The notes below the pieces were generated by a model, which was given only the letters and a program-made list of their open reading frames with translations, searched no databases and was not told where the DNA came from. A DNA stretch of 64,000 nt from Acidobacteriota bacterium (GTDB lineage Bacteria; Acidobacteriota; Thermoanaerobaculia; UBA5066; Gp7-AA6): positions 61,069 through 125,068 of the forward strand of contig JAIVJS010000001.1 in NCBI GenBank assembly GCA_020199905.1. Direction: 5' to 3'. A program made the position numbers and the translations under genes. Below are positions 1 to 60,500 of the stretch, piece by piece; within the stretch, counting starts at the first letter, position 1, and each line of letters starts with the position of its first letter.

Positions 1-165
1 TATTGAGTTATCCGTCCTCAGTGAGAGTTCTCAGGCCGTGGCCGAAGATGGATTTTCGGCCGCGAAGGCCCTGCCGGCGAAGCAAAAACTGACCACTGAA
101 CACTGAGAACGGAGCACTCTTTCCCCCTTGCCTTTTTGCCTCGGATTTCGTAGAATTCACGTTCC

Positions 166-1029
166 TTGCCCAACCGATTCCGAATCGCCATTTCGGCGGC
201 GCTTTTCTTCATTCTTCTCGGACGCCTCGCCGGAACGCCCTCTGGATTTGCGCCGCTTTCGACGCTGATCGGCACGTCGGGAAAGCTGCGCGCCGTCTTC
301 ACTCTGCCGGGCGAGGTGCCCGTTTCCGAGATTCCCGCGGAGCCCCGCGCGCCCGGCGTGTATGCCATGGACGCGGTCGGAGCGGCAGGAGCGGCGCTGC
401 GGTGGATCGTGATGACCCCCTTCTCCGCCAAGGTCAACGGGCGGATCGGGCCCTACCGGATGGGCCACTGGCCTTTCGAAAACCGCGCCCCCGGCGACCC
501 CGCCTACGCCAGCCCGAGAGGGTTTGTGCAGGTCACACCGGACAACTTCGGCCTGAAGGTTTCGGAGCATTTCGCGCTCGGCCAGTTCGTCACCAAGAAC
601 CAGCCGAACGTGTGGCCCAAGTATGTGGCCCTCCAGCCGCGTCTCCTCGACAAGCTGGAGCTGACGATCGCGGAGTTGAACCGCGAAGGCTATCGGGTGA
701 AGGGTCTCTCCGTGATGAGCGGTTTCCGCACCCCCGATTACAACGAAGAGGGTGTCGGCGCCGGCGGCCGGTCCGCGGTCTCGCGGCACCAGTACGGCGA
801 CGCCGCGGACGTGTATCCGGACGATCTCGGCCGGGGGCGCATGAGCGACCTGAATCGCGACGGCCGCGTGGATCTCAAGGACGCGCACGTTCTCGCCCAC
901 GCCGCCGAGATGGTCGAGCTCTCCCACCCGGAGCTCACCGGTGGAATTGGCATCTACCCGGCGACGTCGGCGCACGGCCCCTTCGTGCACATCGACGCGA
1001 GAGGCAAGCGCGCCCGCTGGGGTGCTTAA
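166..1029 (+). CDS. Peptidase M15 family (D-Ala-D-Ala carboxypeptidase / YcbK-DUF882-like), membrane-anchored or secreted
   Basis: Track ORF with a TTG start; an in-frame TAG at 151 blocks further upstream extension. The N-terminus has a hydrophobic anchor (AISAALFFILLGRLAG). Zn-peptidase motifs SRHQYGDAADV and VHID are present. GC3 is high. Confidence 0.7.
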   Translation: MPNRFRIAISAALFFILLGRLAGTPSGFAPLSTLIGTSGKLRAVFTLPGEVPVSEIPAEPRAPGVYAMDAVGAAGAALRWIVMTPFSAKVNGRIGPYRMGHWPFENRAPGDPAYASPRGFVQVTPDNFGLKVSEHFALGQFVTKNQPNVWPKYVALQPRLLDKLELTIAELNREGYRVKGLSVMSGFRTPDYNEEGVGAGGRSAVSRHQYGDAADVYPDDLGRGRMSDLNRDGRVDLKDAHVLAHAAEMVELSHPELTGGIGIYPATSAHGPFVHIDARGKRARWGA

Positions 1030-3451: not shown

Positions 3452-3573
3452 TTTTCATCGCTTTCGCGCTAATTCGTGTGACACATATGTTCCATCGCTC
3501 CGCGGGGGCGGTCACAGACGCCAGTCTCTCCGACTCTTAACTCACAACTGAAGACTGCCAACTGAAAACTCTT

Positions 3574-4024
3574 TCAGAAGAGCGGCTCCGAGATCAGCTG
3601 CTGGCGGGTCACGGAAATGCACGAGCCCGTCATCTGGCCCACCTGGCAGCGGAGCTGGATCGCGACGAAAGTCCCGGACGTGTTGACGAGTCGCAGGCTC
3701 GCCCCCTGATAAGCGTTGACCGCCTGGATCCCGGTGGGCGCGGAGACGATCGTCCACTGCGCCGCCGACAGCTCGTTGTTGCAGACGGGCGTCCCGTTGC
3801 CACACGCTCGCCGCCATCGAGGCCGGCGTCGCCGTCACGGTGCTCACCACCGGGATGACGCCCATGACCTCGAAAATGCGGTTCGCCGCGATATTGAAAT
3901 CGACTCCGGTCGTCGCCGGGTTGGGAGACCCCGTGACCGCCGACGAGAGGGCGAACGTCGTGGCGGACGCCGTCGCCGAAACCAGGATCACGAGCGTCGC
4001 AAGACCGATAAGACGCAATTTCAT
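3574..4024 (-). pseudogene. Frameshifted paralog of the small secreted Cys-containing protein at 60925-61407
   Basis: The N-terminal part (signal peptide MKLRLIGLATLVILVSATASA...EVMGVIPVVSTVTATPASMAAS) is in the frame of track ORF 3542..4024. The homologous C-terminal part (ACGNGTPVCNNELSAAQWTIVSAPTGIQAVNAYQGASLRLVNTSGTFVAIQLRCQVGQMTGSCISVTRQQLISEPLF*) is in the next frame and ends at 3574-3576. The switch lies near 3795-3800. About 8 codons present in the paralog are also missing here. Confidence 0.55.
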
Positions 4025-7781: not shown

Positions 7782-8290
7782 GCTCGAACGGGAAGTCGAC
7801 GGCCCGCGTCCTCATTCTCGCCGCGGCCTTCGCCGGATTCGCCCTGCCCGCGGTGTCTCAGCAGGGATTTCCGGACGGCAAATGGTGGAAGCGGCCGAGG
7901 TTGATGGCCGAGATCAACCTCTCGTCCGAGCAGTCGCGCGAGATCGAGAAAATTTTCGTTCACTCCCGCACCCGCTTGATCGACCTGAAGGCGGACCTCG
8001 AGAAGAAGCAGCTCGCGCTCCAGTCGTCGATGGAGGACCGGGGGGCCGACCGCCGCGCCGTCGAGAAGGAGATCGAGCAGGTCGAGAACGCGCGGGCGGA
8101 GCTCCAGAAGGCGCGCGCCGTCATGGTTCTCGACATCAAGCAGGTCTTGAAGCCCGACCAGTGGGACCATCTCCTCCAGATGCAGCAGGAGATGAAGGAG
8201 CGCCGGATGATGGCGAAAGAAGGGCGGCAGAACGGGTACCGACAGGGGCCGGGGGGACAGAACCGCCCGCGCGCGCCGAGGGGCGAGTAG
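7778..8290 (+). CDS. Periplasmic Spy/CpxP/ZraP-family (LTXXQ) stress protein
   Basis: GTG start overlapping the anti-sigma stop (GTGA). Signal peptide ARVLILAAAFAGFALPAVSQQ. LTXXQ-like motifs (NLSSEQSREIEKIF; QVLKPDQWDHLLQMQQEM). Confidence 0.65.
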   Translation: MSSNGKSTARVLILAAAFAGFALPAVSQQGFPDGKWWKRPRLMAEINLSSEQSREIEKIFVHSRTRLIDLKADLEKKQLALQSSMEDRGADRRAVEKEIEQVENARAELQKARAVMVLDIKQVLKPDQWDHLLQMQQEMKERRMMAKEGRQNGYRQGPGGQNRPRAPRGE

Positions 8291-8335
8291 CCGTCAGCTC
8301 CGCTGTCAGCTCTCAGCCGTCAGCCAGAGGCCTCT
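8291..8335 (+). repeat. Heptamer array (GTCAGCT/CTCAGCC type) immediately after the stop of the Spy-like gene, followed by palindrome CCAGAGGCCTCTGG
   Basis: ccgtcag ctccgct gtcagct ctcagcc gtcagcc agaggcc, read directly. Confidence 0.6.
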
Positions 8336-13998: not shown

Positions 13999-14040
13999 GG
14001 TATTGAAGACTCAACGCTGAACGCTCAACGCTCAACCAGC
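13999..14040 (+). repeat. Heptamer array (GCTCAAC x4) in the spacer after the giant CarbopepD_reg gene
   Basis: actcaac gctgaac gctcaac gctcaac cagctcc. Confidence 0.6.
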
Positions 14041-14543
14041 TCCCGTACCCAGGCAATCGGATCGTCCATCAAACGGTTGTTTTCGGTAAACGCGCGCCAC
14101 TCGGCGAAGAAGGCCCAGAGGTGGAGGGCGACCGCGAAGACCGACGCCGCGAGATGGACCCAGGAGGGAAGCGTCCGCGTGTGCACCGCCGCTCCGAGGA
14201 CGAAGACCGCGATCGCGGCGGCAAGCGCGAAGGTTGCGGGCGGCGAGGTCTGCGCCTTGAACCTCCGAAGGGCCGCCAGGATGGGCTTCTGGTCCACCTC
14301 CGCAAGGCTCGCCACCTCGTCCTTGACCAGGCGCCCCGTCCCGACGAAATAGAAGATCACCATCGACTGCGAGAAGAGCGAGAAGAGCACAGTCGGAATC
14401 GCCCAACCGACGTGACGGCGGACGAGGACCCGCGCGATCGCGGAGCCGGCGCCGATGCCGGTGGCGACGGAGAATCCCTGGATGGAGGTCGCGAGGAAGC
14501 CGGCGAGCGCCAGTGCCGTCGTCAGAAGGAGCGCGAACGACAT
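14025..14543 (-). CDS. Hypothetical membrane protein (4 predicted TM helices)
   Basis: I use the internal ATG at 14543 (MSFALLLTTALALAGFLATS...). The upstream part of track ORF (to 14726) overlaps the fadD promoter region and is not coding-like. Confidence 0.5.
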   Translation of the reverse strand: MSFALLLTTALALAGFLATSIQGFSVATGIGAGSAIARVLVRRHVGWAIPTVLFSLFSQSMVIFYFVGTGRLVKDEVASLAEVDQKPILAALRRFKAQTSPPATFALAAAIAVFVLGAAVHTRTLPSWVHLAASVFAVALHLWAFFAEWRAFTENNRLMDDPIAWVRELVER

Positions 14544-21217: not shown

Positions 21218-21220
21218 CCT

Positions 21221-21526: not shown

Positions 21527-21630
21527 GAAGAAGTCGAGAGTCAGGAGATCAGAGTCGAGAGTAGAAGACCCGCCGGCGCGCCTGCGGATCCCTCCGGACT
21601 CTGAGCTCTCGACTCTCGACTGCCCCGTGC
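21527..21630 (+). repeat. Inverted pair of heptamer arrays (..GAGTCGAGAG.. / ..CTCTCGACTC..) around a GC-rich core, followed by a T-tract; candidate large terminator hairpin
   Basis: gagtcgagagtagaag ... ggactctgagctctcgactctcgactg ... cctcttttttcc; a 10-bp perfect inverted repeat flanked by further heptamers. Confidence 0.45.
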
Positions 21631-21639
21631 CTCTTTTTT

Positions 21640-28431: not shown

Positions 28432-28500
28432 GCCATTCTGCGGCCTTTTCCCGGATTCCGGGGATTCGAGACGTTTCCGTGATCCCATCGGAACCGAAAA

Positions 28501-28532
28501 CTGACAGCCGACAGCTGACAGCTGAGAGCTAC
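28501..28532 (-). repeat. Heptamer array (CTCTCAG CTGTCAG CTGTCGG CTGTCAG on the minus strand) immediately after the NDH-2 stop
   Basis: Plus strand reads ctgacag ccgacag ctgacag ctgagag; its orientation matches the coding strand of the upstream (minus-strand) gene. Confidence 0.6.
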
Positions 28533-29788
28533 TTTCTCCGCGGCTCCTCGAGCCGCCCCGTGATCAGGCGGGCGCCGCGCTGGTCCGTCAGGTAGGCCCA
28601 GGCCCACTCGAACATGACGACGAAGCGGTTGCGAAAGCCGATCAGGAAGAAGATGTGGACGAAGCACCAGACGAGCCAGGCGGCGAGACCGGAGAGACGG
28701 ACCCCCGCGATCTCCGCGACCGCCTGGGCGCGTCCGATCACGGCCATGCTTCCCTTGTCGCGGAAGTGAAACGCCCGGAGAGGCTGGCCCGACCGGGCGA
28801 GCACGATGTTCTTCGCCGCGTGCCGGCCCTGCTGGATGGCGGCCGGGGACGTTCCCGGAAGCAGCGTTCCGCCCTGGTGAAGAAAGGCTGCCAGGTCGCC
28901 GATCACCGAAATCTCGGGGTGACCGGGGATCGTGAGATCGGGCTCCACGAGGACGCGCCCCGCCCGGTCGAGCGGGACTCCCAGCGACCGCGCGAGAGGG
29001 GACGCGGCGACGCCGGCGGCCCAGAGGACGGTCCCCGCCGCCAGCGACTCTCCCGCGACACGGACTTCGTTCTCGCGGATGTCCTCGACCGCGTGCCCCG
29101 TTCTGACCTCCACTCCTTTGCGGGTGAGGACGGCCTGGGCCTTCGTGGAGGTCTCGGGCGTGTAGGCGGGCAGGATGCGCGGACCCGCCTCGACCAGGAC
29201 GATCCGCGCCTCGCGCGGGTCGATCGCGCGAAAGTCCCGGACCAGCACTTCCCTCGAGATCTCGGCGATCGCCCCTGAGAGCTCGACGCCGGTCGGGCCC
29301 GCTCCGACGACCACGAAGGTCAAGAGCCGCTTCCGTTTTTCCGGGTCCGGCTCCCGCTCCGCGCGCTCAAAGGCGAGCAGAATTTCCCGGCGGATCTCGA
29401 GCGCGTCTTCCAGGCTCTTCAGGCCCGGCGCAAACGGCTCCCAGTCGTCACGCCCGAAATAGGAATGGCGCGCGCCCGTGGCGACGATCAGGTAGTCGTA
29501 GGGGAGCCGCCCGTCGGCGAGCACGACCTCCCGGCTGTCCGGTTCGATCGAGACCGCGTCCGCGAGGAGCACCTCCGCGTTGCGCTGGTGGCGGAGGATC
29601 GCGCGGATCGGATACGCGATGTCGCCGGGGGAGACCACCGCGGTGGCGACCTGGTAGAGGAGCGGCTGGAAGAGGTGATGGTTCCGGCGGTCCACGACGG
29701 TGACCCGGACCGGCGCGCCGTCGAGCGCGCGCGCCGCCGTGAGACCTCCGAAGCCCGCCCCGATCACGATGACGCGCGGATCCTCCAT
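28529..29788 (-). CDS. ndh: Type II NADH:quinone oxidoreductase (NDH-2), FAD-dependent pyridine nucleotide-disulfide oxidoreductase
   Basis: FAD-binding motif VIVIGAGFGGLTAARAL, a second NAD(P)-binding motif (VVVGAGPTGVELSGAIA), and C-terminal amphipathic membrane helices. Confidence 0.8.
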   Translation of the reverse strand: MEDPRVIVIGAGFGGLTAARALDGAPVRVTVVDRRNHHLFQPLLYQVATAVVSPGDIAYPIRAILRHQRNAEVLLADAVSIEPDSREVVLADGRLPYDYLIVATGARHSYFGRDDWEPFAPGLKSLEDALEIRREILLAFERAEREPDPEKRKRLLTFVVVGAGPTGVELSGAIAEISREVLVRDFRAIDPREARIVLVEAGPRILPAYTPETSTKAQAVLTRKGVEVRTGHAVEDIRENEVRVAGESLAAGTVLWAAGVAASPLARSLGVPLDRAGRVLVEPDLTIPGHPEISVIGDLAAFLHQGGTLLPGTSPAAIQQGRHAAKNIVLARSGQPLRAFHFRDKGSMAVIGRAQAVAEIAGVRLSGLAAWLVWCFVHIFFLIGFRNRFVVMFEWAWAYLTDQRGARLITGRLEEPRRK

Positions 29789-33308: not shown

Positions 33309-33447
33309 ATGTCGTCGAACCCCACTCCCGTACGTGTTCCGGAGCGTCAGCCCGCGTCGAATCTGCCCGGTACGTCAAATTCGTCTTCAAAAGAGAACGA
33401 GAAGGCCTGGCGGCCGATTCGCATCGTCAGCAGCGTCCCGACCTAGG
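33309..33447 (+). CDS. Small hydrophilic ORF (46 aa) with a strong Shine-Dalgarno
   Basis: AGGAG 7 nt upstream of the ATG (aaacAGGAGatccatcATG). Encodes MSSNPTPVRVPERQPASNLPGTSNSSSKENEKAWRPIRIVSSVPT. Below the track's length cutoff. Lies at the edge of the lower-GC islet. Confidence 0.25.
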
Positions 33448-33518
33448 TTTTCCCGAGCGCCGCGTTGACGGGGCAAGTGCCCCCGTGTAACCTGCCGCTT
33501 CGGCAAAGGTCCGAATCG

Positions 33519-33857: not shown

Positions 33858-34963
33858 CGGGAAGGGTTCTCGCCTTTCGTCTTCGACGCGATCCCGCGCC
33901 CGATCAATTCGCGGCCGCACAGGGGATTTTCGCGCTGTCGTTCGAGGATCGGATCTCGAGAGCTGCGGAGCTGAAACTGGACGATCCCGAAATTCTTTTG
34001 GCCGTCTCCGGGGCGCTTCGCGAGGGGATCGAGGGCTCCCCCTCGCCGACCCTTACCGAGGCGGACTTCTTTTATCGGTATCTCGAAAAGCCGCGGCGCC
34101 CGATCGGCCTCTTCGACGAACGTGAGTATTTCCTCGGCGAGATCGCTCTTCTGGCGGGCTCCGCGGCGCGTATTCTTGGAAGACACGAGGAAGCGCGCCG
34201 CTGGTTGGATCGAGCCGATTCAAATTTCCGGCTGACGGTCAACGCCGTCGCTGAAACGGCGCGAGTGTCCTATCAGCGCCTGACCCTTTCGATTCAGGAG
34301 AGGCAATTCGCCGTCGTACTGGAGCTTGTCCCTTCCCTCGCCGAGTGCTTCACGCGTCAGGAAATGCATCAGGACGCCCTGAAGTGCTTTTTCCTGGAGG
34401 CGATCGCGTACAAAGAGACGGGGGAGTGGTCAGAGGCTCTTTCGAGATTCGAGGCCCTCGCAGAAAAATGCGAAGTGGCGGGAAACGACAAGATGCGCGC
34501 TTCCGCGTATGTCAATCTGATCCAACTCCATTCGGAGAACGGCAACGAGGCCGAGGCGCTCGAACTGTCGAAGGGAACGCTCTCGCTTCTGAGGCAGTTG
34601 GGAAACCGTGTCGATGAAGCGAAGGTTCATTGGGGCATCTCGATGTTGCTGCGGCAGAAAGGCCGCTACGAAGAGGCTCTCGAAAGCTTCCGTTCCTGTG
34701 ATGAGAAATACCTGGCTCTCGAGATGTTCCCCGACTCGGCTGCCACCCGGCTGGTGATGGCCGACCTCCTTTTAGAGCGGGGACGGGATGCGGAGGCCAC
34801 TGCGGCAATCCTCTCGGCTCTCCCGATCATCGAGAAGTACGAGATGATTCCAGAAGGAACGGCGGCCCTGGTGCTTTTGCGCGAATCCGCTCGCGTGAAC
34901 CAGGTGAACCGGGGAGCTCTTCGAGAAGTGCACGGCTACTTCGACCAGCTTTCCGAGCGATAG
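33851..34963 (+). CDS. Tetratricopeptide-repeat protein
   Basis: Multiple TPR-like helical pairs (EEALESFRSCDEKYLALEMF..., EATAAILSALPIIEKY...). A GTG at 33851 overlaps the upstream stop. The track's Arg-rich N-terminal 58 codons are an overlap artefact. GC is about 57-60%, against about 70% elsewhere. Confidence 0.6.
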   Translation: MVAGRVLAFRLRRDPAPDQFAAAQGIFALSFEDRISRAAELKLDDPEILLAVSGALREGIEGSPSPTLTEADFFYRYLEKPRRPIGLFDEREYFLGEIALLAGSAARILGRHEEARRWLDRADSNFRLTVNAVAETARVSYQRLTLSIQERQFAVVLELVPSLAECFTRQEMHQDALKCFFLEAIAYKETGEWSEALSRFEALAEKCEVAGNDKMRASAYVNLIQLHSENGNEAEALELSKGTLSLLRQLGNRVDEAKVHWGISMLLRQKGRYEEALESFRSCDEKYLALEMFPDSAATRLVMADLLLERGRDAEATAAILSALPIIEKYEMIPEGTAALVLLRESARVNQVNRGALREVHGYFDQLSER

Positions 34964-41262: not shown

Positions 41263-42420
41263 GTGCTCCACGCGCTTCTCGCCGGCTGCGCGGCGTGCTC
41301 GGTCTTCTGGCTCGTCGCGCTGCTCGTGAATCTGGCGGCGCTCCCGCGGCTTTCCCGCCAGGCGCCCGCGTCCGGCAACCTGCCTTTTGTCTCGATCGTC
41401 GTCCCGGCGCGCAACGAGGAGCGCGCGATCGGCTCGGCCCTGCGATCCCTTCTCGCACAGGACTATCCGGAATCCAGGCGGGAGGTGATCGTCGTTGACG
41501 ACCGCTCGACGGACGGCACCCGGCGGGTTCTCGCCGGCCTCGAGAACGATCCCGGCCTGAAAATCATCGACGGGGCCGAACCGCCTCCCGGCTGGCTCGG
41601 CAAACCCCACGCTCTCTTTCAGGGCTCCCGCGCCGCGCGCGGCGAGTGGCTCCTCTTCGTCGACGCCGACGTCCGGTACCGTCCCGATGCGGTTTCGCGC
41701 GCGATGGGGTACGCCCTTCGAGAGCGAACGGACTTCGCGGCGCTCCTGCCGCACCTGGAGACCTCCGGTTTCTGGGAGAGCGTGTTGATGCCCAATCTCC
41801 TGTGCGCCGTCTTCTTCGGCCCGGCCGTCCTCGCCAACCGCCGGTGGCCCCGATGGCTCGCCGCCGGCGGGGGAGCGGGCAACCTCATTCGCCGGGCGGC
41901 CTACGACGCGATCGGAGGGCACGAATCGCTGCGCGCGTCGGTCATCGACGACGTCCGCCTCGCCGTCATGTCCAAGCAGGCGGGATTTGCGACGCGCACT
42001 GTGCTCGCGCACGAGCTCGTCGCGGTGCGGATGTACCACGGCTTTCGGGAGGTCTGGGACGGGTTCACCAAGAACATCGCCTACGCCCTGGGGGGCGTCA
42101 CCGGCTTCGCGTTTGCGGGAATGTCGCTGGTGTGGACCGCGGTGGCGCTGTCTCCGCCCGCGGTCCTCATGGCGGCAGCCTTCGGGGCCTCCCTTCCCGC
42201 GGCCGACGTGGCCCTGGCCGGAGCCTCCTTCGGCGTGCTCGTCTTCGCGCGCGCGCTTCTCTCGAAAGCGTTGCATGACCCGGTCTGGCCGTCGCTGACC
42301 CATCCCCTGATGGCGGCGGTGTGGGCCGGCCTTCTCGTGCGCTCCGTCTACCAGCGCCTCGTCCGCCGCTCGGTCCCGTGGCGGGGGCGGCACTTCGACG
42401 CGAGGAAGGCGGGGTTTTAG
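41263..42420 (+). CDS. Family 2 glycosyltransferase, membrane-bound
   Basis: GTG start 8 nt after the deoB stop. GT-A fold motifs (VSIVVPARNEE; DDRSTDGT; FVDADV) and C-terminal TM helices. Confidence 0.7.
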   Translation: MLHALLAGCAACSVFWLVALLVNLAALPRLSRQAPASGNLPFVSIVVPARNEERAIGSALRSLLAQDYPESRREVIVVDDRSTDGTRRVLAGLENDPGLKIIDGAEPPPGWLGKPHALFQGSRAARGEWLLFVDADVRYRPDAVSRAMGYALRERTDFAALLPHLETSGFWESVLMPNLLCAVFFGPAVLANRRWPRWLAAGGGAGNLIRRAAYDAIGGHESLRASVIDDVRLAVMSKQAGFATRTVLAHELVAVRMYHGFREVWDGFTKNIAYALGGVTGFAFAGMSLVWTAVALSPPAVLMAAAFGASLPAADVALAGASFGVLVFARALLSKALHDPVWPSLTHPLMAAVWAGLLVRSVYQRLVRRSVPWRGRHFDARKAGF

Positions 42421-42424
42421 CGAG

Positions 42425-42490
42425 TTTTCCATCTTCAGTTTTCAGTTTTCACTGTTGGCTCAGAGGTGACGACTGATAACTGACAACGGA
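42425..42490 (+). repeat. Heptamer array (TTTTCAG / TGACAAC types) after the GT2 stop
   Basis: ttttcca tcttcag ttttcag ttttcac tgttggc tcagagg tgacgac tgataac tgacaac. Confidence 0.55.
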
Positions 42491-42574
42491 TTACTCCTTC
42501 TGCGCTAACATCCCGCCCGCCATCAACGTCCCTCTGCCCCCTCGCCCGCGAAAAACGCGTCGGAGGAGGAAATC

Positions 42575-44902: not shown

Positions 44903-46404
44903 TGCACCCGACCGGCCCGGGACGGCACCCTCTCTTTGTCACCGCGATCCTCTGCGCCTGCGCGCTGGTTCTTGGGGGGGCCGCGCCCCGCCGCAAACCG
45001 AAGCCGGCCGCGAGCGAGCGCTCCGCGTCCGCGGGCGCCGCCGCGGACCTTCTCGTGGTCGGGGGCCGGGTCGTGACGATGGACGCGTCTTTTTCGGTGA
45101 TCGAAGACGGCGGGCTTTTCCTCTCGGGCGGAAAGATCGTCGCCGTCGGGCGGTCGGCGGACCTGAAATCTCAATACCAGGGCAAGCCCGTCTGGGACGC
45201 GCAGGGCCGCATCCTCATGCCCGGCCTCGTCAACACGCACGGCCACGCCGCGATGACCCTCCTTCGCGGCCTCGCCGACGATCTGACGCTCGATAAGTGG
45301 CTCACGGAGCACATCTTTCCCGCCGAAGCGAAGAACGTCTCGCCGGAGTTCGTGTACGACGGAACGCTCCTCGCGTGTCTCGAGATGATCGAGGGCGGGA
45401 CGACTACGTTCGCCGACATGTATTACTTCGAGTCGGAGGCGGCGCGCGCGGTGGATCGAGCCGGGCTGCGGGGGGTCCTGGGAGAGACCTTCATCGACTT
45501 TCCGGTGCCCGACCACAAGGACCTTCCCGCCACGCTGGCCGTGATGAAGGCCTTCGCGGCGAAATGGAAATCGCATCCGCGGATCGTGCCGGCGGCGGCT
45601 CCGCACGCGCCGTACACCTGCTCGAAGGAGACGCTCGTCGCGGCGCGCGATTTCGCCCTCGCGGAAAACATCCCGCTGCTGATTCACGTCGCCGAGACCC
45701 GCAAGGAGGTCGACGACGCGCGCAAGGCCTGGCAGCAGACGCCGTTCATGCGGCTGGCGTCCGTCGGTTTCTTCGATCCCGGTGCCGGCGGCCGGCGCGT
45801 CCCGATCCTCGCCGCTCACGGCGTCTGGATGGACGAGGGGGATATCGCGATCGCGCGCCAGTACGGGATCGCCCTGTCGCACAACCCGGAGTCGAACATG
45901 AAGCTCGCGTCCGGGACGGCGGACGTTCCCGGATGGCAGAAGGCCGGGCTCGTCTGGGGGCTCGGAACCGACGGGCCGGCCGGGTCGAACAACGATCTCT
46001 CGATGTTCGAGGCGATGGACTTCGCCGGGAAGCTCGCGAAGGTCTCGAAGATGGATCCGACAGTCCTTCCGGCGCGCGACCTCGTCGCCGCAGCCACGAG
46101 AGGCGGCGCGAAGGCGCTCGGCCTTGAAGCGAAGATCGGGTCTCTGGAGCCCGGAAAGCAGGCCGACTTCATCGCGGTGCGCACGAAGACGGCTCACGAG
46201 CAGCCCTTCGACGACCCGTATTCCGCCCTCGTGTACTCGATCAAGACCTCGGACGTCTCGGACGTCTGGGTGGACGGCCGGCGCCTGCTCGCCGACGGGC
46301 GGTCCACGACTCTGGACGCCGCCGCGATCCTGGAGAAGGCCGCCTCGTGGCGCCGCCGGGTCGATGCGTCGCTCGCCTCGCCGAAAGGAGAGACACCGAA
46401 GTGA
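44902..46404 (+). CDS. Amidohydrolase-family protein (nucleobase/nucleoside deaminase-like) with N-terminal signal/anchor
   Basis: ATG at 44902 (TGATG overlap with cdd). Metal-binding motifs (VNTHGHAAMT; HVAE; HGVWMDE). Hydrophobic N-terminus FVTAILCACALVLGGAA. Confidence 0.75.
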   Translation: MHPTGPGRHPLFVTAILCACALVLGGAAPRRKPKPAASERSASAGAAADLLVVGGRVVTMDASFSVIEDGGLFLSGGKIVAVGRSADLKSQYQGKPVWDAQGRILMPGLVNTHGHAAMTLLRGLADDLTLDKWLTEHIFPAEAKNVSPEFVYDGTLLACLEMIEGGTTTFADMYYFESEAARAVDRAGLRGVLGETFIDFPVPDHKDLPATLAVMKAFAAKWKSHPRIVPAAAPHAPYTCSKETLVAARDFALAENIPLLIHVAETRKEVDDARKAWQQTPFMRLASVGFFDPGAGGRRVPILAAHGVWMDEGDIAIARQYGIALSHNPESNMKLASGTADVPGWQKAGLVWGLGTDGPAGSNNDLSMFEAMDFAGKLAKVSKMDPTVLPARDLVAAATRGGAKALGLEAKIGSLEPGKQADFIAVRTKTAHEQPFDDPYSALVYSIKTSDVSDVWVDGRRLLADGRSTTLDAAAILEKAASWRRRVDASLASPKGETPK

Positions 46405-47705
46405 AGAGCGTTTACGAGATCCTGCGCGCCAAGCGCGACGGGAAGGAGCTTTCCCGGGAGGAGATCGCCTTTCTCGTCGCCGGGGTCGTCTCGGGAGAGG
46501 TACCGGACTACCAGGCCGCCGCGTTCCTCATGGCGGCCGTCATCCGAGGGCTCTCGACGCCGGAGATGGCTGCGCTCACCGAGGCCATGCGCGACTCCGG
46601 CGACTCGTGGGACCTCTCCGATCTCGCGCCCGTCGTCGACAAGCACTCGACCGGTGGAGTCGGGGACAAGGCGACGCTCGTTCTCGCCCCGCTCGTGGCC
46701 GCCGCGGGAGGACGCGTGGGGATGATGTCCGGACGCGGGCTCGGGCACACCGGCGGAACGCTCGACAAGCTCGCCGCGATCCCTGGATTTCGGACCGATC
46801 TCGACCTGCCGCGAGTCCGCCGGGCGCTCACCGAGGTCGGAGCGGCGCTCTTCGCGCAGACGGACACGGTCGCCCCCGCGGACCGCAAGCTCTACGCGCT
46901 GCGCGACGTCACGGGGACGGTCGAGTCGCTCGGCCTCATCGTTGCCTCGATCCTGTCGAAGAAGCTCGCATCCGGGACGACCGGCATCGTCTTCGACGTA
47001 AAAACCGGCAACGGGGCGTTTCTGAAGACCGTGCCCGAATCGCGGGCGCTCGGCCGGGCGCTCGTCGACACCTCGCGCGCCGCGGGGCGCGAGGCCAGCG
47101 GATGGATCACCGACATGTCGCGGCCTCTCGGACGCGCCGTCGGCAACGCGCTCGAGGCCGAGGAGTCGATCCTCGTCCTGCGCAACGAGGGTCCGCCGGC
47201 GGTCCGCGAGCTCTGCCTCGTGCTCGGCGCGGACATGCTGCGCTTCGCCGAGCCCGCGCTCTCCGAGCCGGACGCCCGCCGGCGGCTCGAAGAGGCGTTC
47301 ACGTCCGGGAAGGCCGCCGAGCGTTTCGCGAAGCTGGTCGAGTTCCAGGGGGGCGACCCCCGCGTCGTCGAAGACCCGTCGATCCTGCCTCAGCCGAAAT
47401 CCAGGATCCCCGCGGCCGCGCCCCGGTCGGGATTCGTCCGGTCGATCCAGACCGAGAAGATGGGATTCCTGTCGATCGACATCGGCTGCGGACGGCGCAA
47501 GCGGGAGGACGACATCGACTTCGCCGCGGGGTTCCTGGTCGAGAAGACGGTGGGGGACCGCGTCGAAAAAGGAGAGCCGCTCGCCATCCTCTGCCTCGGG
47601 GAGCGCCCCGCGCCGAGACCGTCCTTCGAGCGGGAGCTCGCGGACCTCTTCGAGATCGGCGACGAACCCGCCGCGCCGCCGGCTCTCGCCATAGAGAAGC
47701 TGTAG
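46401..47705 (+). CDS. Thymidine / pyrimidine-nucleoside phosphorylase
   Basis: GTG at 46401 overlapping the upstream stop (GTGA). Motifs (VDKHSTGGVGDK; GHTGGTLDKL). Confidence 0.85.
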   Translation: MKSVYEILRAKRDGKELSREEIAFLVAGVVSGEVPDYQAAAFLMAAVIRGLSTPEMAALTEAMRDSGDSWDLSDLAPVVDKHSTGGVGDKATLVLAPLVAAAGGRVGMMSGRGLGHTGGTLDKLAAIPGFRTDLDLPRVRRALTEVGAALFAQTDTVAPADRKLYALRDVTGTVESLGLIVASILSKKLASGTTGIVFDVKTGNGAFLKTVPESRALGRALVDTSRAAGREASGWITDMSRPLGRAVGNALEAEESILVLRNEGPPAVRELCLVLGADMLRFAEPALSEPDARRRLEEAFTSGKAAERFAKLVEFQGGDPRVVEDPSILPQPKSRIPAAAPRSGFVRSIQTEKMGFLSIDIGCGRRKREDDIDFAAGFLVEKTVGDRVEKGEPLAILCLGERPAPRPSFERELADLFEIGDEPAAPPALAIEKL

Positions 47706-47826
47706 GAGCATGCGCTGCAGCTGTCAGCTCTCAGCTCTCAGTTCAGAGCTCTCGAACCCGAGCTCTCCACTTTCCACTCGCAACCCTTGACTCTCAGCGC
47801 TTAACTCTCAACTCTCCACTTCCCCC
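47706..47826 (+). repeat. Phased array of 15 degenerate heptamers (CAGCTGT CAGCTCT CAGCTCT CAGTTCA GAGCTCT ... CAACTCT CCACTTC)
   Basis: Read directly: 12 nt + 15 x 7 nt + 4 nt fills the whole spacer between the pdp stop and the GDPD ATG. The array is C/T-rich and G-poor on the coding strand. Confidence 0.75.
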
Positions 47827-48852
47827 ATGACCATGCTCGGAAGGGCAAACCCGCTCGAACGGATTTTTCGCGGCGTGCGAGGGAAGCTCTGGCCGGGGCG
47901 CGGCGTGTCCGCTGCGGCGCCGCGCACCGTGCGGGTGATCGCCCACCGCGGCGCGGCTCGGGTGAGAGCGGAGAACACGATCGAGGCGTACGCGGCCGCG
48001 GTCGACCTCGGGGCCGACGGCGTCGAGGCGGACGTCTGCGTCACGCGCGATGGGCGGTTCGTGATCTGGCACGACGCCGACCCGGGCGAGAAGATCGCCC
48101 TCGCGCGGCAGTCGGGACGGGAGGGGCTGCTGTGCACTCCGGACGTTCCGACCCTCGTCTCGAAATGGCGCCGGCGCGTCAAAGACCTCGACTACGAAGA
48201 CTTCCGCACCCACTACGGATACCGCCTGCGGGAGGGGGGCATCGCGGACCTGATCGGCAACGACGACCCGCCGAAGATCCCCGCCGCCACATTCGATGAC
48301 CTGATCGCGTGGGCGGACCGGGAGCCGCGGCTCGCCACGATCTGCCTCGACATCAAGCTGGCGCCCGACCAGACTGATTCGGCCGCGCGGCTCTTCGACC
48401 TTCTGCGGGATCTCTTCGCCGAACGGCGGGACGCGGCCTTTCCGGCCGTCGCGCTCCTGACCCCGCAGCGCGAGATCTTCGAGGCGTTTCAAAGGGAGTC
48501 GGCACGGCATCCCCACGACGACCGGCTCACCGTTCACGCCGACTTCGAGCTCCCTGGCGTGCTGGCCGCAGCGCGGCGCCTGCGATTCCGCCGCGTGAGC
48601 ATGGGAGTCGGACAGCGGTTCTGGCCGGGCTTCCGCGACGAGGTGGCGGACGTCGTGCGGGCGCGGGAGCGCGGAGAGCTCGACGCCGTGATCGTCTGGA
48701 CGCTAAACGAGCCGGACCGGCTGGCCAGACTGGTCGCGTTCGGCGTGGACGGAATCCTCACCGACGAGCCGGCGGCGCTTCGAAAGATGATCTCCGAAGG
48801 CCGCTCCGAGTCGCTGCGCTCTCGCCATTCGGAGGCGCGGGCGCGCAGTTAG
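47827..48852 (+). CDS. Glycerophosphodiester phosphodiesterase family protein
   Basis: GDPD motifs (RVIAHRGAARVRAENTIEAYAAAVDLGADGVEADVCVTRDGRFVIWHD). Confidence 0.8.
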   Translation: MTMLGRANPLERIFRGVRGKLWPGRGVSAAAPRTVRVIAHRGAARVRAENTIEAYAAAVDLGADGVEADVCVTRDGRFVIWHDADPGEKIALARQSGREGLLCTPDVPTLVSKWRRRVKDLDYEDFRTHYGYRLREGGIADLIGNDDPPKIPAATFDDLIAWADREPRLATICLDIKLAPDQTDSAARLFDLLRDLFAERRDAAFPAVALLTPQREIFEAFQRESARHPHDDRLTVHADFELPGVLAAARRLRFRRVSMGVGQRFWPGFRDEVADVVRARERGELDAVIVWTLNEPDRLARLVAFGVDGILTDEPAALRKMISEGRSESLRSRHSEARARS

Positions 48853-48861
48853 AATCCCGCA

Positions 48862-53330: not shown

Positions 53331-54313
53331 TGCGCGTCACCGTTCTCGGCGCCGGATCCTGGGGCACCGCGCTCGCCCTGCACCTCGGCCGCGGGGGGCA
53401 CGACGTCGTTCTCTGGAGCCGGGACCCGGCGGTCGCGGAGCACATCCAGTCCACGCGCCGACATCTTCGCCGTTTCGCGAATTCCGCGCTCCCGGCGAGC
53501 GTTCGCGCGACGGCGAACCTCCCCGAGGCGCTCGACTACGCCGACACGGCGCTCGTGGCCGTGCCGTGCGCCTCCTTCCGGCCGCTCTTCGAATCGATGC
53601 CGAGGGAAATGGCGGCTCGCCGTTTCGTGTCTGTCGCCAAGGGGATCGAGCCCGACACGCTGTCCCGCATGACGTCGATCATTCTCGAGTACCGCCCCGG
53701 CGCCGACGTCGCCGCCCTCTCGGGCCCGACCTTTGCGGAGGGGGTCGCGAGGGGAGATCCGAGCGCCGCCGTCATCGCGGACGCCGGCGGAGGGCTCGCG
53801 CAGGAGCTCCAGGGGCAGTTCTCTGACGGCCGTCTCCGCCTCTACAGCTCGCGCGACCTCGTCGGCGTCGAGCTCGCGGGGGCGCTGAAGAACGTCGTGG
53901 CGATCGCGGCGGGCGTCGTCTCCGGACTCGGGTTCGGGCCGAACACCGTCGCGGCGCTCGTCACCCGGGGCCTGGCGGAGCTCGGCCGGATCGTGCGGGC
54001 ACGCGGCGGAGAGGCGCGCACCGTTGCGGGGCTCGCGGGCGTCGGCGACCTCATGCTGACGTGCACGGGCCGCGAGTCGCGCAACCGGCGGGTCGGCGAG
54101 GAAATCGGGCGGGGAGGGCGGCTGTCGGAGATCCTCCTCCGGATGCCCGAAGTCGCCGAAGGGGCCCGGACCTGTCTCGCCGTTCCCCGGATGGCGGCCG
54201 AGGCCGGAATGGAGTCGCCCATCGCGGACGCCGTGGTGCAGGTGCTCTACCAGGACGTACCGCCCGGGGAGGCCGTCGAAAGACTGATGACGAGAACGCT
54301 GAGAAGCGAATGA
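53330..54313 (+). CDS. gpsA: NAD(P)H-dependent glycerol-3-phosphate dehydrogenase
   Basis: MRVTVLGAGSWGTALA Rossmann motif. GpsA catalytic region (LKNVVAIAAGVVSGLGFGPN). TGATG overlap with plsY. Confidence 0.9.
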   Translation: MRVTVLGAGSWGTALALHLGRGGHDVVLWSRDPAVAEHIQSTRRHLRRFANSALPASVRATANLPEALDYADTALVAVPCASFRPLFESMPREMAARRFVSVAKGIEPDTLSRMTSIILEYRPGADVAALSGPTFAEGVARGDPSAAVIADAGGGLAQELQGQFSDGRLRLYSSRDLVGVELAGALKNVVAIAAGVVSGLGFGPNTVAALVTRGLAELGRIVRARGGEARTVAGLAGVGDLMLTCTGRESRNRRVGEEIGRGGRLSEILLRMPEVAEGARTCLAVPRMAAEAGMESPIADAVVQVLYQDVPPGEAVERLMTRTLRSE

Positions 54314-54314
54314 G

Positions 54315-54356
54315 TTGTCAGTTCTCAGTTCTCAGTTCTCAGTTCTCAGTTCTTGG
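54315..54356 (+). repeat. (GTTCTCA)n tandem heptamer array, 4 perfect + 2 degenerate copies, starting 2 nt after the gpsA stop
   Basis: Sequence gttgtca gttctca gttctca gttctca gttctca gttcttg, read directly. Confidence 0.85.
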
Positions 54357-54391
54357 TTTCCGGACGTGAGCGGACTGCCGACCCGAACTGA

Positions 54392-56724: not shown

Positions 56725-57042
56725 ATGAAGAAGGTATTTGCTCTCTCGCTGGTGGCTGTGCTGTGTCTGGCGGTCGTCGCGGTGGCCGGGGACGACAAGA
56801 TGATGGGCAAGGGAAAGATGGGCGGCGCCAGCGAAGGCACCGTCTCGAAGCTCGACATGGCCGGGAAGATGATGATGGTCAAGGACAGCGCCGGCAAGGA
56901 ATCCACGATCTATTGGAACGATTCCACGAAGGTCGAGGGCGGGGAGCTCAAGGAAGGCGCCCTCGTTAACTACAAGGGCGCGGAGAAGGACGGCAAGATG
57001 TGGGCGACCTGGGTCCACGTCGGCGAAATGAAAAAGATGTGA
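56725..57042 (+). CDS. Small periplasmic Met/Lys-rich protein (possible CusF-like OB-fold metal-binding protein)
   Basis: GAGGAGG 6 nt upstream of the ATG. Signal peptide MKKVFALSLVAVLCLAVVAVAG. Met-rich motifs (KMMGKGKMGG, GKMMMVKD) and conserved Trp (WATWVHV). GC is lower than the surroundings. Confidence 0.6.
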   Translation: MKKVFALSLVAVLCLAVVAVAGDDKMMGKGKMGGASEGTVSKLDMAGKMMMVKDSAGKESTIYWNDSTKVEGGELKEGALVNYKGAEKDGKMWATWVHVGEMKKM

Positions 57043-57056
57043 ATCCGGAGAAAAAA

Positions 57057-57080
57057 GGGCGGCACGGACCGCCCTTTTTT
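57057..57080 (+). terminator. Rho-independent terminator (GGGCGG-cacgga-CCGCCC-TTTTTT)
   Basis: A perfect 6-bp GC stem with a 6-nt loop followed by T6, 15 nt after the stop of the Met-rich protein gene. Confidence 0.75.
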
Positions 57081-57537
57081 CTGTTCTGAGTTCTCAGTCG
57101 TTCCCCCGCATCCGAGGAGCACGGGGTTGAAATCTCACCGTTTCCCCGCGCCGCCCTTCCCCTTTCGCCTCCAGGGGCCATTTGAGTGAAAAATGACCAG
57201 AATTGACGCGCATTCCGACTAGAATTCGCCAACGGCCTCACGACGATTCCTCCCGCGGCGCCTCGTCGCCCTCCTGTTCCTGCTCCTCTCCGGCGGGCCG
57301 CTCTCGCTTCGCGCGGAGCGCAAGACGCCGCCCGGCGCCGCGGCGGCGCAGCGCGAGCCGGAAGCGGAAAGCGAGAAGGAGGACGGCCCCGGGCAGATTC
57401 GCGAACGCGTTCGCCTCTATCTGAAGAGACATTCCGAGAACGGCCGGATCGATCCGGAGCGCCGCCTCGAAAAGGTCGCCGCCGAATACACGCGGTTTCG
57501 GGACGAGGAACGGCGCGGCGGCCGCGCGAGGCTGTCC

Positions 57538-60500
57538 GTGGGAGGCTCGACGTGGGTGTCTCTCGGTCCGACGAACGGCGCGGGCCGCATGACGGGGATC
57601 TCTCCTCACCCGACCGACGTCGGAACCGTGCTCGCCGGAGCGGCGGGCGGGGGAGTCTGGAAGACGACGGACGGCGGGGCGAGCTGGGTTTCGCTGACGG
57701 ATGGTTTGAACGACCTGTCGGTGGGAGCGGTCGCCTACGCGCCGTCCTCACCCAACGTCGTCTACCTCGGAACCGGGGAGGGGAGCTACGCGGTCGACTT
57801 CATCCCCGGGATCGGGCTTCTGAAGTCCACGGACGGGGGCGCCACCTGGACCTTGCCCTCCTCGGTCCTGGCGTCACGCTTCCATCGGATCAACGTGCAC
57901 CCGACGAACCCGAACGAGCTGCTGGTGGGGACGAGCCGCGGAGCGCTGCGATCCACCGACGGCGGGGCGAGCTGGGAGACGGTGATCTCGCCGACCGCTT
58001 ACGGGGACGTTCCGGAGATCCTGCGGGACCCGACCGATCCCCGGAACCTCTTCGCCACCACGTGGTGCATCTCGGGAGGGTGCACGTTCAAGACGGCGCA
58101 CGTCCTGAAGTCGACGGACGGAGGCGCCACCTGGACGGACCGCAGCTTCGGTCTGCCGACCGCGAACCCGTCGGACTTCGCCTACGAGCGCACCGCCCTC
58201 GCGCTCTCTCCTTCGAACACGTCGGTCCTCTACGCCGCGCGATCGGTCCGGCCGGCGGCGGGCACGATCATTTCCCACGTCTACAGGACCGTGGACGGCG
58301 GCGCTACATGGACGGACCTGCCCTCGGTGAGCGCACGGAACAGCCGGTATCTCGCCGACCAGTCCTGGTACAACAACACGATCATCGTCTCTCCAACCGA
58401 CTCCAACACGGTAATCGCCGGCGGGACGAGATACCTGCGCTCGACCGACGGCGGAGCCAACTTCACCCCCGTGCTCGACGGGGAGGTCCACGTGGACGCG
58501 CACGACCTGCGGTACCAGGGATCGACGCTCTGGTTCGCCAATGACGGGGGCGTGTGGACGAGCGTCGACGACGGGATCTCCTCGACCGACCGGAACAACG
58601 GGCTCGTGACGCGCCAGTACTACGCGCTCGCGATCGACCCCATCAACCGCAACCGGATTCTCGCCGGCGCGCAGGACAACGGCACCAATCAGCGGATGGA
58701 CGGGGGAGGGACGGTCTGGCGCCCGGTCATCGGCTCCGACGGCTTCGAGTGCGTCGTGAATCCCTTCTCGCCGGCGATCGCCTGGGGGAGCACGCAGCAG
58801 GGACAGATCTTCCGGAGCCGGAACGTCGGCGCCTCGACGGATCCCTCGTTCCAGTCCGTGACCCCGCCCTACGACGCCAACGAGGAGACACCGTTCCTGA
58901 CGGTCCTCCGCAACGACCCGCGCGCCCCTCAGACGATCTATACCGGCTCTTACCGTCTCTGGCGCTCGCGCGACGGCGGCACCGTGTGGGTCCCCCTCCC
59001 CACGACGACCACAGACGGCTCGGCCTGGCCCAGGTCCACGACCGTGACGTCGCTGGCGCTCTCGCGCACGGATCCTCTTCTGATCCTGGTCGGCAAGGAA
59101 AACGGCATCTACCGGTCCGGTGACGGAGGCCAGACCTGGACACCGGCGACCGGAGTTCCGGATCGGGTGCTGACCAATCTCGAGATCGACCCGACCAACT
59201 CCGGCATCGCCTACGCCACCTTCTCCGCGATCACCTTGCCGAGCGTGTACCGGAGCGTCGACGGCGGGTTGACCTGGGCGCCGAGCGCGTCCGGCCTTCC
59301 GGCATTTCCCTCGCAGGTGATCCGCGTCGATCCGACCGATTCCAACGTCGTGTTCGTCGGCACCGACGTCGGCGTCTTCCGTTCGCCGGACCGGGGGGCG
59401 ACGTGGAGCCGTTTCGGCACAGGCCTTCCGAGCTCCTCGGTCCACGACCTGCAGGTGCTGGACGACGGTTCCATGCTCCGTGTCGCGACGCACGGGCGCG
59501 GAATCTGGGAGCTGCAGGTGCCGGCGACCGGAAACAATCCGCCCGTCCCGACCGTCGTCGCTCCCGCGTCGTCGATCGCCGTCCCGCTCGGAACGACGGT
59601 GTCCTTCTCCGGGACGGTGACGGATCCGGATCCTGGAGACACCGCCTCCGGAACCTGGTTCTTCCCGGACACGTCCGAGAACATCCCGCTGCCGGGCGGG
59701 GCGGGCACGGTGGCACACACGTTCCGGCGTGCGGGCTCCTTCCCGGTCGCGCTCTCGGCTCGCGATTCCCGCGGCGCTCTCGGCACCGCCGTCGTTCAGG
59801 TGTCCGTGACGGACAGCGGAGACGCGTGCGCGACGCCGGTCGTGATCCCATCCAACGGTCCCTTCCCGTACGCCGTCCTCGCCAGCAGCGAGTCCGCGAC
59901 GACGGAGGCAACGGATCCTTCGCCCTCGTGCTGGGTGAGCGCCAAGGCGGCGTCGCTCTGGTTCGAGTACACGCCCCCGGCCGACGGCCAGTATGAGATC
60001 TCGACGTGCGGGAGCGCACCCGACACCGTTCTCTCCGTTTTCACCGGCGCCGCGTGCGGTCCGTACACGCCCGTTTCCGGCGGGTGCAATGACGACGCCC
60101 CCGCGTCCTCCGGATGCGGAACACAGGCTTCCCTCGTGACCGTGACCGGCAGGGCGGGACAGACGTTCCGGATCCAGGCCACCGGTTTCGATGAGTCCAG
60201 TCTCGGCTCGTTCGCCCTGAACGTGAGGCCGATTTCCGTGCCGGCGTCTTCGCCCCGGGTCGGCGGAGTGAACGCCGGCGAGGGTCCGGCGCCCGGCGGG
60301 ACCACGGTGCTGATCACGGGCAGCGGATTCCAGAACGATGCCACGGTCTCTTTCGGCGGCGTCGCGGGCACCGACGTCGTCGTCCTCGCGCCGACGCTTC
60401 TCTCCGTGCGAACGCCGGCGCACGCGCCCGGAGACGTGGACGTCTCGGTGACCTCGGGCGGCGGGACCGGGACGCTCTCCCGCGCGTTCGCGTTCACCCC

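Follow-up and report, generated by a model that had tools for sequence, protein, structure and literature searches.

What fills the 121 nucleotides (nt) between two co-directional genes of an acidobacterium, and does it act on the gene that follows? The genes encode a pyrimidine-nucleoside phosphorylase (pdp) and a GDPD-family protein, and they lie in a 64,000-nt stretch from an Acidobacteriota bacterium of the Thermoanaerobaculia (GenBank assembly GCA_020199905.1, contig JAIVJS010000001.1, positions 61,069 to 125,068), called the window here and used for all coordinates unless a relative's locus is named. A sequence-only reading had described the spacer as built entirely of 15 in-phase degenerate heptamers, and had proposed that the GDPD gene depends on read-through from upstream or else that signals lie in the array. 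This array belongs to a known class, the intergenic heptanucleotide simple-sequence repeats (SSRs), and is closest to the TAACTGA repeats of the Beggiatoaceae; what is new is the phylum and the GC-shifted unit. That this repeat class runs through a whole clade and has been described before was a point which the sequence-only reading had not seen. We consider it probable that the array was born by slippage as an SSR and is a functionally passive spacer. Nothing in the results shows it to be a dedicated control element, and we infer that such a function is absent.

The spacer measures 121 nt as had been claimed (47706-47826), between the TAG stop codon of pdp (47703-47705) and the ATG of the GDPD gene at 47827, all on the plus strand. 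The pdp gene (46401..47705; Pfam PF02885/PF00591/PF07831, Glycos_transf_3 + PYNP_C) encodes 434 amino acids (aa) and is called identically on near-identical NCBI contigs, while the GDPD gene (47827..48852; Pfam PF03009) has a product 100% identical to protein P0001. Its start is ATG 47827 or 47833, because the N-terminus MTMLGRANPLER is kept in orthologues with synonymous changes. The 15 units listed earlier are exact and in one phase, but they account for only 105 of the 121 nt (47718-47822), so that the spacer does not consist of heptamers from end to end. The first 12 nt, read off the sequence as GAGCATGCGCTG (47706..47717), form a linker without repeat, and the last four, CCCC (47823..47826), adjoin the GDPD start codon and hold no Shine-Dalgarno (SD) motif. 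Sub-array A (47718..47766, plus strand) has the seven units CAGCTGT, CAGCTCT, CAGCTCT, CAGTTCA, GAGCTCT, CGAACCC and GAGCTCT; on the minus strand these read as NAGCTGA units, and the palindromes CAGCTG and AGAGCTCT lie inside them. Sub-array B (47767..47822, plus strand) has the eight units CCACTTT, CCACTCG, CAACCCT, TGACTCT, CAGCGCT, TAACTCT, CAACTCT and CCACTTC, with few G and an NAACT core whose orientation is "forward" with respect to the GDPD start. The linker contains AGGAG and, after a 1-nt gap, an ATG (47710) that opens a 26-codon open reading frame (ORF). We rejected this small ORF as a gene since it is absent or different in the orthologous loci of three relatives (L001, L002, L036) and the 1-nt SD spacing is wrong. 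The array was likewise rejected as a three-frame translational stop: it holds only two stop triplets (TGA 47788, TAA 47802), and one frame is open through it (ORF 46124..47830). Stop triplets are present in the units of many relatives' arrays.

Period-7 column information in the focal array amounts to 0.87 bit per column; 20,000 first-order Markov shuffles gave 0.14 +/- 0.05 and never attained the observed value (z = 13.9). Each half is significant alone (z 6.6 for sub-array A, z 8.3 for sub-array B), and among periods 3 to 13 none but 7 stands out; head-to-tail 7-nt copies beyond chance, the defining property of a heptanucleotide SSR, are therefore present. The column consensus of the 15 units is C(11/15) A(10) R(15) C(13) T(12) C(12) T(11), or CARCTCT, and the two halves are direct copies of each other, in phase and 6/7 identical. 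The array is nonetheless far from perfect. Tandem Repeats Finder reports two period-7 arrays, 47718-47753 (75% matches) and 47763-47820 (64% matches), the units are about 27% diverged from their own consensus, and at most two adjacent units are identical. This divergence is roughly the amount expected if homogenising had ceased before the split from L001, L002 and L036. The composition is skewed, with 41% C and 13% G in the array and a GC skew of -0.49 over 47750-47849. Upstream of it the 3' end of pdp, AAGCTGT (47697-47703), is in phase with the array and matches the first unit, CAGCTGT, at 6/7 positions. The array consensus agrees at 4/7 positions with the heptamer that ends in the pdp stop, which is the top score of the seven phases but a weak one. 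These matches are suggestive, and only suggestive, of an array born from the terminal heptamer of pdp.

Intergenic heptamer arrays number at least 12 in the window; the focal one is among them and is the longest of its family there, as had been noticed from the sequence alone. A self-match scan of the window finds repeats at period 7 and its harmonic 14, with essentially none at the other periods from 4 to 13. Three CARYTCT units with up to three mismatches occur 10 times where 0.01 matches are expected, and AACTGANAACTGA with up to two mismatches gives 24 matches at eight loci where 0.99 are expected. Oriented on the AACT strand for consensus grouping, the arrays fall into an NAACTGA group and an NARCTCT group, the latter made up of both focal halves and an inverted pair at 21532/21597. 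Mismatches are most frequent at position 1 of the unit (30%) and rarest at the C in position 4 (6%). Most window arrays follow stop codons or lie in convergent junctions, rather than preceding starts, and divergent-junction arrays are rare. No further arrays were found in 13.6 kb of flanking sequence beyond the window ends.

Comparison with 80 orthologous pdp loci places the arrays in a single lineage. The window has two near-identical assemblies, GCA_020200255.1 and GCA_046262695.1 (99.76-99.96% identity), and the pdp protein is 95% identical to those of the metagenome-assembled genomes JALYUA01 and JBBRDK01. Identical or near-identical contigs were traced by way of P0001, pdp, CinA and two further genes, while exact-protein look-ups for the GDPD product (by its coordinates) and the ABC-F product gave no record. 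Among relatives with at least about 78% pdp identity we found 15 strong period-7 arrays in 290 kb, no other period being enriched, whereas the more distant Thermoanaerobaculia/Holophagales loci have none in 348 kb; the heptamer arrays are a feature of one Thermoanaerobaculia branch. Period-6 and period-12 matches in the distant relatives are coding low-complexity sequence (Glu/Asp-rich and similar), unrelated to heptamers, and were set aside. A metagenome scan with the GDPD protein returned relatives of at most 56% identity, useless for the spacer. The arrays keep out of genes as SSRs of this length class do: 20 of 21 lie between genes, in sequence of which, by crude gene calls, about 92% is coding. 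They are not enriched in co-directional junctions, which make up 84% of all junctions and have a median spacer of 4 nt.

The pdp-GDPD junction itself has been turned over between species. GDPD stands between pdp and the gene for an ABC-F protein only in the window and in L001 (and L091), L002, L004, L005, L008 and L036; elsewhere ABC-F comes straight after pdp. The spacer has 63 nt in L001 (CTGTCAG twice, then four units of AACTCTC type), 78 nt in L002 (five CAGTTNT units, an A run and four (C/T)AACTGA units) and about 135 nt in L036 (CTCAACG-type, then CAACTCT-type units), while those of L004 and L008, at about 95-110 nt, are without heptamers. The codons flanking the spacer are conserved across the orthologues, and AACT cores 7 nt apart, in the part that corresponds to sub-array B, are invariant in a four-species alignment. 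Four-fold-site divergence from the window is 0.30 for L002, 0.37 for L001 and 0.51 for L036. Among the near-identical strains the focal spacer is constant (121/121 identical in three strains). The step of change is seen at another member of the family, the perfect array 54313-54353 that separates the convergent gpsA and amino-acid permease genes: GCA_046262695.1 (L095 2340-2440; L099) has one 7-nt unit fewer (window 54318-54324 missing) in strains that are 99.8% identical, and this is the only indel in an alignment of about 31 kb, against about 37 substitutions. Whole-unit length change, as SSRs show it, is thus found in the family as this 7-nt strain step and at the focal site as spacers of 63, 78, 121 and about 135 nt in different species.

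How such arrays begin can be read at the junction of cdd and the amidohydrolase gene, further upstream in the same row. Overlap of the two genes is seen in the window (44902) and several relatives; at least nine other relatives have heptamer arrays that start at the cdd stop codon. The units there are the stop codon plus 4 nt (TAGGTGG, TGAGGCG, TGAGACG) or, in L007, three copies of CTTCTGA, the last 4 nt of the gene plus TGA. The junction has seen repeated, independent array births. Such arrays were recorded at L007, L011-L015, L017, L020, L025 and L027, and the units of L014, L015 and L020 resemble a stop codon joined to an SD string, TGAGGAG. Arrays nucleate at stop codons elsewhere too. The unit is the gene's own terminal heptamer in two clear cases (cdd of L007 and window 14003), and an in-phase match to the stop-ending heptamer is the unique best phase in 7 of 20 arrays, where about three are expected.

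Does the focal array govern the GDPD gene? Motif evidence bears out the earlier claim that no conventional promoter or SD precedes it. A consensus scan of 47400-48000 for sigma-70-like promoters (-35 and -10 hexamers 16-19 nt apart) found 0 sites, which leaves room for promoters of other types, and there is no -10-like hexamer (at least 4/6, with A2 and T6) on the plus strand of 47400-47830, although TAGAAT boxes at other starts are detected by it. Upstream of the GDPD ATG, 25 nt are free of an SD core (GGAG/GAGG/AGGA), and no GGAGG-like motif stands 4-13 nt ahead of the start; such a core is present at about 38% of predicted starts in the clade and at 17% in the control. No intrinsic terminator was predicted in 47400-48000 (0 sites), and Rfam at gathering threshold returned only a tRNA-Arg in the window, an E-value scan of 47500-48000 adding one chance-level match (E 0.99). 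The predicted fold of the spacer RNA (-30.6 kcal/mol, z -1.2) is not significant, and a hairpin or terminator at this site was rejected on that ground. From -40 to +20 the GDPD start has a predicted fold of -7.3 kcal/mol, the second least structured of 53 genes (median -18.6), and among its orthologues this region folds with -2.4 to -3.9 kcal/mol where an array is present and with -13.6 to -21.6 where it is not. The near-identical NCBI contigs show an operon-like row in one direction: nucleoside transporter, PNP/UDP phosphorylase, cdd, amidohydrolase, pdp, GDPD, ABC-F, cinA, ligT, plsY, gpsA. With this row, and with neither a promoter, SD or terminator motif nor a significant fold, read-through from pdp is the most economical reading, and it is likely that GDPD shares a transcript with the nucleoside-catabolism genes and that its translation proceeds without an SD. 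The other half of the earlier proposal, signals within the array, finds no direct support: heptamer-free L004, L005 and L008 also have no good SD, and the array sequence is not conserved between sister species.

Other members of the family do have marked predicted structure. The inverted pair at 42418-42500 gives a hairpin of -30.8 kcal/mol (z -5.3), and the one at 21524-21650 a fold of -54.3 kcal/mol (z -2.5) followed by a T6 run, which in this model looks like a terminator built from repeats. At the L002 orthologous spacer (5350-5450) a hairpin of -33.8 kcal/mol (z -4.8) is predicted. Further inverted pairs after stop codons were noticed at L025 5305-5392 and L020 ~3141-3200.

Repeats of this kind have been described before. 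Heptameric SSRs are over-represented in many bacteria; their function has not been established, and a slippage mechanism linked to the polymerase footprint has been proposed (PMC4692102, which also mentions the short tandemly repeated repetitive, STRR, sequences). A general excess of heptanucleotide long SSRs in prokaryotes goes back to Mrazek et al. 2007, as summarised in PMC4692102 and PMC4679880. In Xanthomonas (GGGAATC) and Nostoc/Anabaena (GGGGAYT) the SSRs are about 90% intergenic and nearer to the upstream ORF (28 nt vs 160 nt); they lie mostly in co-directional or convergent junctions, sometimes as inverted pairs, and recur between the same gene pairs in sister species with highly variable length and sequence (PMC4692102). 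Our arrays share with them the tandem 7-nt units, one dominant unit family per genome, the intergenic site nearer to the upstream ORF, the co-directional and convergent junctions, some inverted pairs and a site that is kept while length and sequence vary. They differ in lineage (Thermoanaerobaculia, Acidobacteriota) and in that the focal array is far more degenerate; moreover, G-quadruplexes are impossible in the window arrays because their unit, unlike that of Xanthomonas and Nostoc, is not G-rich. Cyanobacterial STRR sequences are tandem heptamer families scattered in the non-coding regions of particular lineages. They have other unit sequences and belong to another phylum.

The closest match is the TAACTGA direct repeat of marine Beggiatoaceae, some Cyanobacteria and Bacteroidetes (MacGregor 2015, PMC4679880). 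In 'Maribeggiatoa' the repeats are mostly forward and end a few nt before starts that lack an SD, and variants with one mismatch hardly ever occur as repeats. Sets of other species are found between stop codons, or reversed and immediately 3' of a stop, and 7-nt indels distinguish strains (PMC4679880). Most window arrays are NAACTGA and, like these repeats, intergenic, with forward copies before SD-less starts, reverse copies directly after stops and indels between strains in 7-nt steps; L002 even has its four (C/T)AACTGA copies at the orthologous site. Unlike them, the first unit position is free, G/C-shifted NAGCTGA and NARCTCT units are common in a genome of 68% GC, and most window arrays adjoin stop codons rather than starts as in 'Maribeggiatoa'. 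The focal array does not have the TAACTGA unit (CARCTCT differs by 2-3 mismatches per unit in either orientation), but its sub-array B ends 4 nt before the SD-less ATG 47827, as forward TAACTGA-type sets do. Since other window arrays and the L002 orthologue have NAACTGA, the family is TAACTGA-related and the focal array a diverged variant. For units of 6-7 nt, likeness to the Beggiatoaceae and cyanobacterial repeats does not separate homology from convergence. Repetitive extragenic palindromic (REP) sequences and bacterial interspersed mosaic elements (BIMEs) resemble the arrays in being intergenic, often just after stops, and in forming predicted transcript hairpins from inverted copies; REP units, however, are palindromes of 20-40 nt rather than tandem 7-mers, and the focal array has no fold. 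A literature search on intergenic or heptamer repeats in Thermoanaerobaculia and Acidobacteria found no paper, and a 2025 survey of short tandem repeats mentions neither heptamers nor Acidobacteria.

Taken as a slippage-born spacer, the focal array would have the following history. An array would be born by tandem duplication of a 7-nt segment, often the heptamer that holds or adjoins the upstream stop codon in a very tight junction, and would then grow or shrink by replication slippage in steps of 7 nt. Arrays can survive only outside ORFs, because 7 is not a multiple of 3, and for the same reason of restricted survival they fill most of their spacers. With a median co-directional spacer of 4 nt, only a 7-nt duplication that straddles the junction does no harm; hence the stop triplets in the units, the arrays adjoining the upstream stop and the spacers that are mostly array. 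The focal array itself would no longer be slipping, its units having been interrupted by point mutation, and would be transcribed as an intercistronic part of a pdp-GDPD co-transcript. Its sole effect on GDPD would be passive, a G-poor and structure-free leader before an SD-less start, at which initiation would be SD-independent.

Several observations weigh against this account. A core of NAACTGA/NARCTCT is common to many separate arrays of one genome, something that purely local nucleation of arbitrary heptamers would not lead one to expect. Mismatches are uneven over the seven columns, a hint of constraint (chi-square p = 0.004, the core motif having partly steered the choice of phase). The arrays are not randomly oriented either: after a stop codon, 6-7 of 7 unambiguous arrays are in the "reverse" (TCAGYTN) sense, and inverted pairs run reverse (TCAGYTN), then forward (NAACTGA), in 5/5 cases. 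The strong hairpins that inverted pairs form after stops are not explained by a passive SSR. Arrays are kept at the same junctions across species that are near synonymous saturation while their units change in concert. Finally, the argument from reading frame leaves unexplained why the unit is 7 nt and not 5, 8 or 10, and co-transcription of pdp and GDPD is something that we infer. The common core, the ordered orientations, the hairpins and the kept junctions leave scope for a functional reading; heptamer families described earlier typically show them as well.

One such reading sees in the arrays selected post-transcriptional cis-elements of TAACTGA type, through which a factor acting in trans (ribosomal protein S1, a protein of cold-shock type or some other RNA binder) sets initiation or coupling of SD-less genes such as GDPD. 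The window core NAACTGA with its excess of AACTGANAACTGA matches speaks for it, as do the uneven columns and ordered orientations just mentioned, the (C/T)AACTGA copies of L002 that end 8 nt before the GDPD ATG, the focal forward half that ends 4 nt before its own SD-less ATG and the 'Maribeggiatoa' sets directly upstream of starts without a ribosome-binding site (PMC4679880). The focal units, however, are 2-3 mismatches away from TAACTGA, sister species have other units at the site and close relatives carry the unrelated TAGGTGG, TGAGACG and CGCCTCC. Array-free orthologues lack an SD just the same, most window arrays do not stand before starts at all, and the original system itself has no known binding factor; we regard this reading as unlikely. 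A bolder form of it would take the NAACTGA-like arrays in general as selected intercistronic elements, reverse after stops, forward before SD-less starts and sometimes paired into hairpins, read by a conserved cellular factor. Their core would have been recruited independently, or transferred, among Beggiatoaceae, Cyanobacteria, Bacteroidetes and this acidobacterial clade, and the focal spacer would be a degenerate working example that controls GDPD translation or coupling. This we hold to be distinctly unlikely.

The skewed composition invites a different thought, that the array is a Rho loading (rut-like) site and acts as an intra-operon attenuator, so that GDPD expression would depend on how fast ribosomes engage at its start. 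More than 100 nt of untranslated RNA after the stop, where a rut site calls for at least 70-80 nt, rich in C, poor in G, with neither significant structure nor an intrinsic terminator, would suit Rho, and several other post-stop window arrays are pyrimidine-rich in the sense of the upstream gene. Yet composition is the whole of the argument, a C spacing of 7 nt is not the spacing described for rut sites, and a terminator between pdp and GDPD would leave GDPD with no detectable promoter. A general C>G skew of post-stop arrays fails across the family, other such arrays being either rich in purines or balanced (window 14003 and 21532; TAGGTGG and TGAGACG in relatives); the idea is improbable. That the spacer is what remains of an inverted pair, whose post-stop hairpin once served as a terminator or as a REP-like stabiliser of the mRNA 3' end and decayed here, seems quite improbable. 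Strong hairpins of this kind are indeed predicted at 42418-42500, at 21524-21650 and at the L002 orthologous spacer, and the first focal half reads as reverse NAGCTGA and the second as forward NAACTNN, but the halves are direct rather than complementary copies, and the focal RNA has its z of -1.2. Since a CT-type second half is common to the focal array, L001 and L036, the most divergent relative compared, the complementary GA-type of L002 looks derived. That the arrays act on the DNA as iterons, bound either by a nucleoid protein or by a heptad-reading one that recognises direct and inverted copies like pSM19035's omega repressor, is very improbable. Direct and inverted heptads and a family core common within one genome would fit, but from array to array, and from one close relative to another, the units are not the same, no candidate protein was found, and the arrays are not concentrated at promoters, the divergent-junction class being rare. 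Hardly credible, finally, is a phase-variable contingency locus in which copy-number changes switch or tune GDPD. The precedent is hmw1A/hmw2A of Haemophilus influenzae, where a 7-bp SSR upstream of the gene drives phase variation by slippage (PMC12721329, PMC8262952); here, too, a heptamer tract stands between the upstream gene or promoter and a start codon, and another family array (54313) differs by one 7-nt copy between strains. But the hmw tracts are perfect, hypervariable and placed before surface adhesins, whereas the focal tract, with 27% diverged units, is heavily interrupted, which suppresses slippage, is identical in three strains and precedes a gene of housekeeping metabolism, and arrays are equally common in convergent junctions where there is no downstream gene.

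Heptanucleotide repeats are the most over-represented class of long SSRs in bacteria, and their origin and function are unsettled. The present arrays extend the phenomenon, including a TAACTGA-like core, to a fourth phylum at 68% GC, and therefore make transfer of the motif among AT-rich aquatic bacteria less likely. The orthologous junctions give unusually clear snapshots of array birth, by duplication of the stop-codon heptamer at overlapping genes, and of array change, as a 7-nt step between strains and as concerted unit change between species. For annotation, growth of repeats can account for long "empty" spacers in these genomes, with no need for promoters or small genes concealed in them; the practical message for GDPD is modest.

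The remaining arrays of the window show the same habits. In the NAACTGA group, the array at 84..113 (plus strand; AAACTGA CCACTGA ACACTGA GAACGGA) is upstream of a gene at 166..1029, and that at 3529..3577 (plus strand) has six NNNRACT units 3' of a tRNA-Arg(CCT) (3375-3451), starting about 78 nt after it. In the latter the ACT core is invariant, and three other positions vary freely and are different in every unit, a pattern that looks more like core constraint than even decay. An NAGCTGA-type array (8289..8325, minus strand) occupies a convergent junction, and (CAGCTGA)n at 28492..28531 (plus strand) adjoins the stop codon of the minus-strand gene 28529..29788, in whose sense it reads TAGCTCT CAGCTGT CAGCTGT. 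The inverted pair of 42423..42491, (CAGTTTT)n at 42423-42454 and (NAACTGA)n at 42464-42491, directly follows a stop codon. Near-perfect (GAACTGA)n on the minus strand, or (CAGTTCT)n on the plus strand, fills 54311..54358 in a convergent junction and starts at the gpsA stop codon. Three GAACTGA-like (CAGTTCT-like) units at 57078..57101 (minus strand) complete the group; they stand directly 3' of a canonical intrinsic terminator, GGGCGGCACGGACCGCCC + T6 (window 57050-57101), that follows a gene at 56725..57042. The inverted pair at 21532..21621, with AGTCGAG-type units at 21532-21562 and GACTCTC-type units at 21597-21621, lies after a stop codon and before the T6 run. The (GCGTTGA)n array at 14003..14037 (minus strand) continues in phase (7/7) into the stop codon of 14025..14543, a predicted ORF on the minus strand.

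A few further observations concern the neighbourhood. Two C-rich CGCCTCC arrays, L014 3943-4001 and L016 988-1042, precede the pdp start and end in CCCC-ATG like the focal site; SD pairing is impossible at these starts because the unit has CCTCC, the anti-SD end of 16S rRNA. In GCA_020200255.1 (L090 4754-4792), 39 extra in-frame bases, unrelated to heptamers, stand at window 42618/42619, close to the 5' end of an ORF whose ATG (42575) is preceded by a strong SD (GGAGGAGGAAATC). The same assembly (L096 8008/8009) is without 259 nt relative to window 59711-59971, inside the gene for a large BNR/PKD/TIG-repeat protein, and the gene is split there into calls of 780 + 236 aa, where GCA_046262695.1 has 1104 aa; either a real deletion or a collapse of the repetitive gene in assembly may lie behind this. 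A crude caller placed no gene in 20386-21220 (835 nt, 72% GC) and 32668-33997 (1330 nt), the first of which probably holds a minus-strand gene. Downstream of GDPD, a TAGAAT -10-like box (48850..48855, plus strand) lies inside the GDPD 3' end, 6 nt before the GTG start of ABC-F at 48862. Its position suggests that the ABC-F gene has its own leaderless-type promoter and a leaderless mRNA. In GDPD-less loci, TAAAAT or TAGAAT followed by 6-7 nt and GTG was seen 3' of pdp (L011, L013, L015, L016, L019, L020, L025, L026 and L032-L034), and similar TAnAAT boxes are close to starts at 151-156, near 4994 (minus strand) and near 25686 (minus strand).

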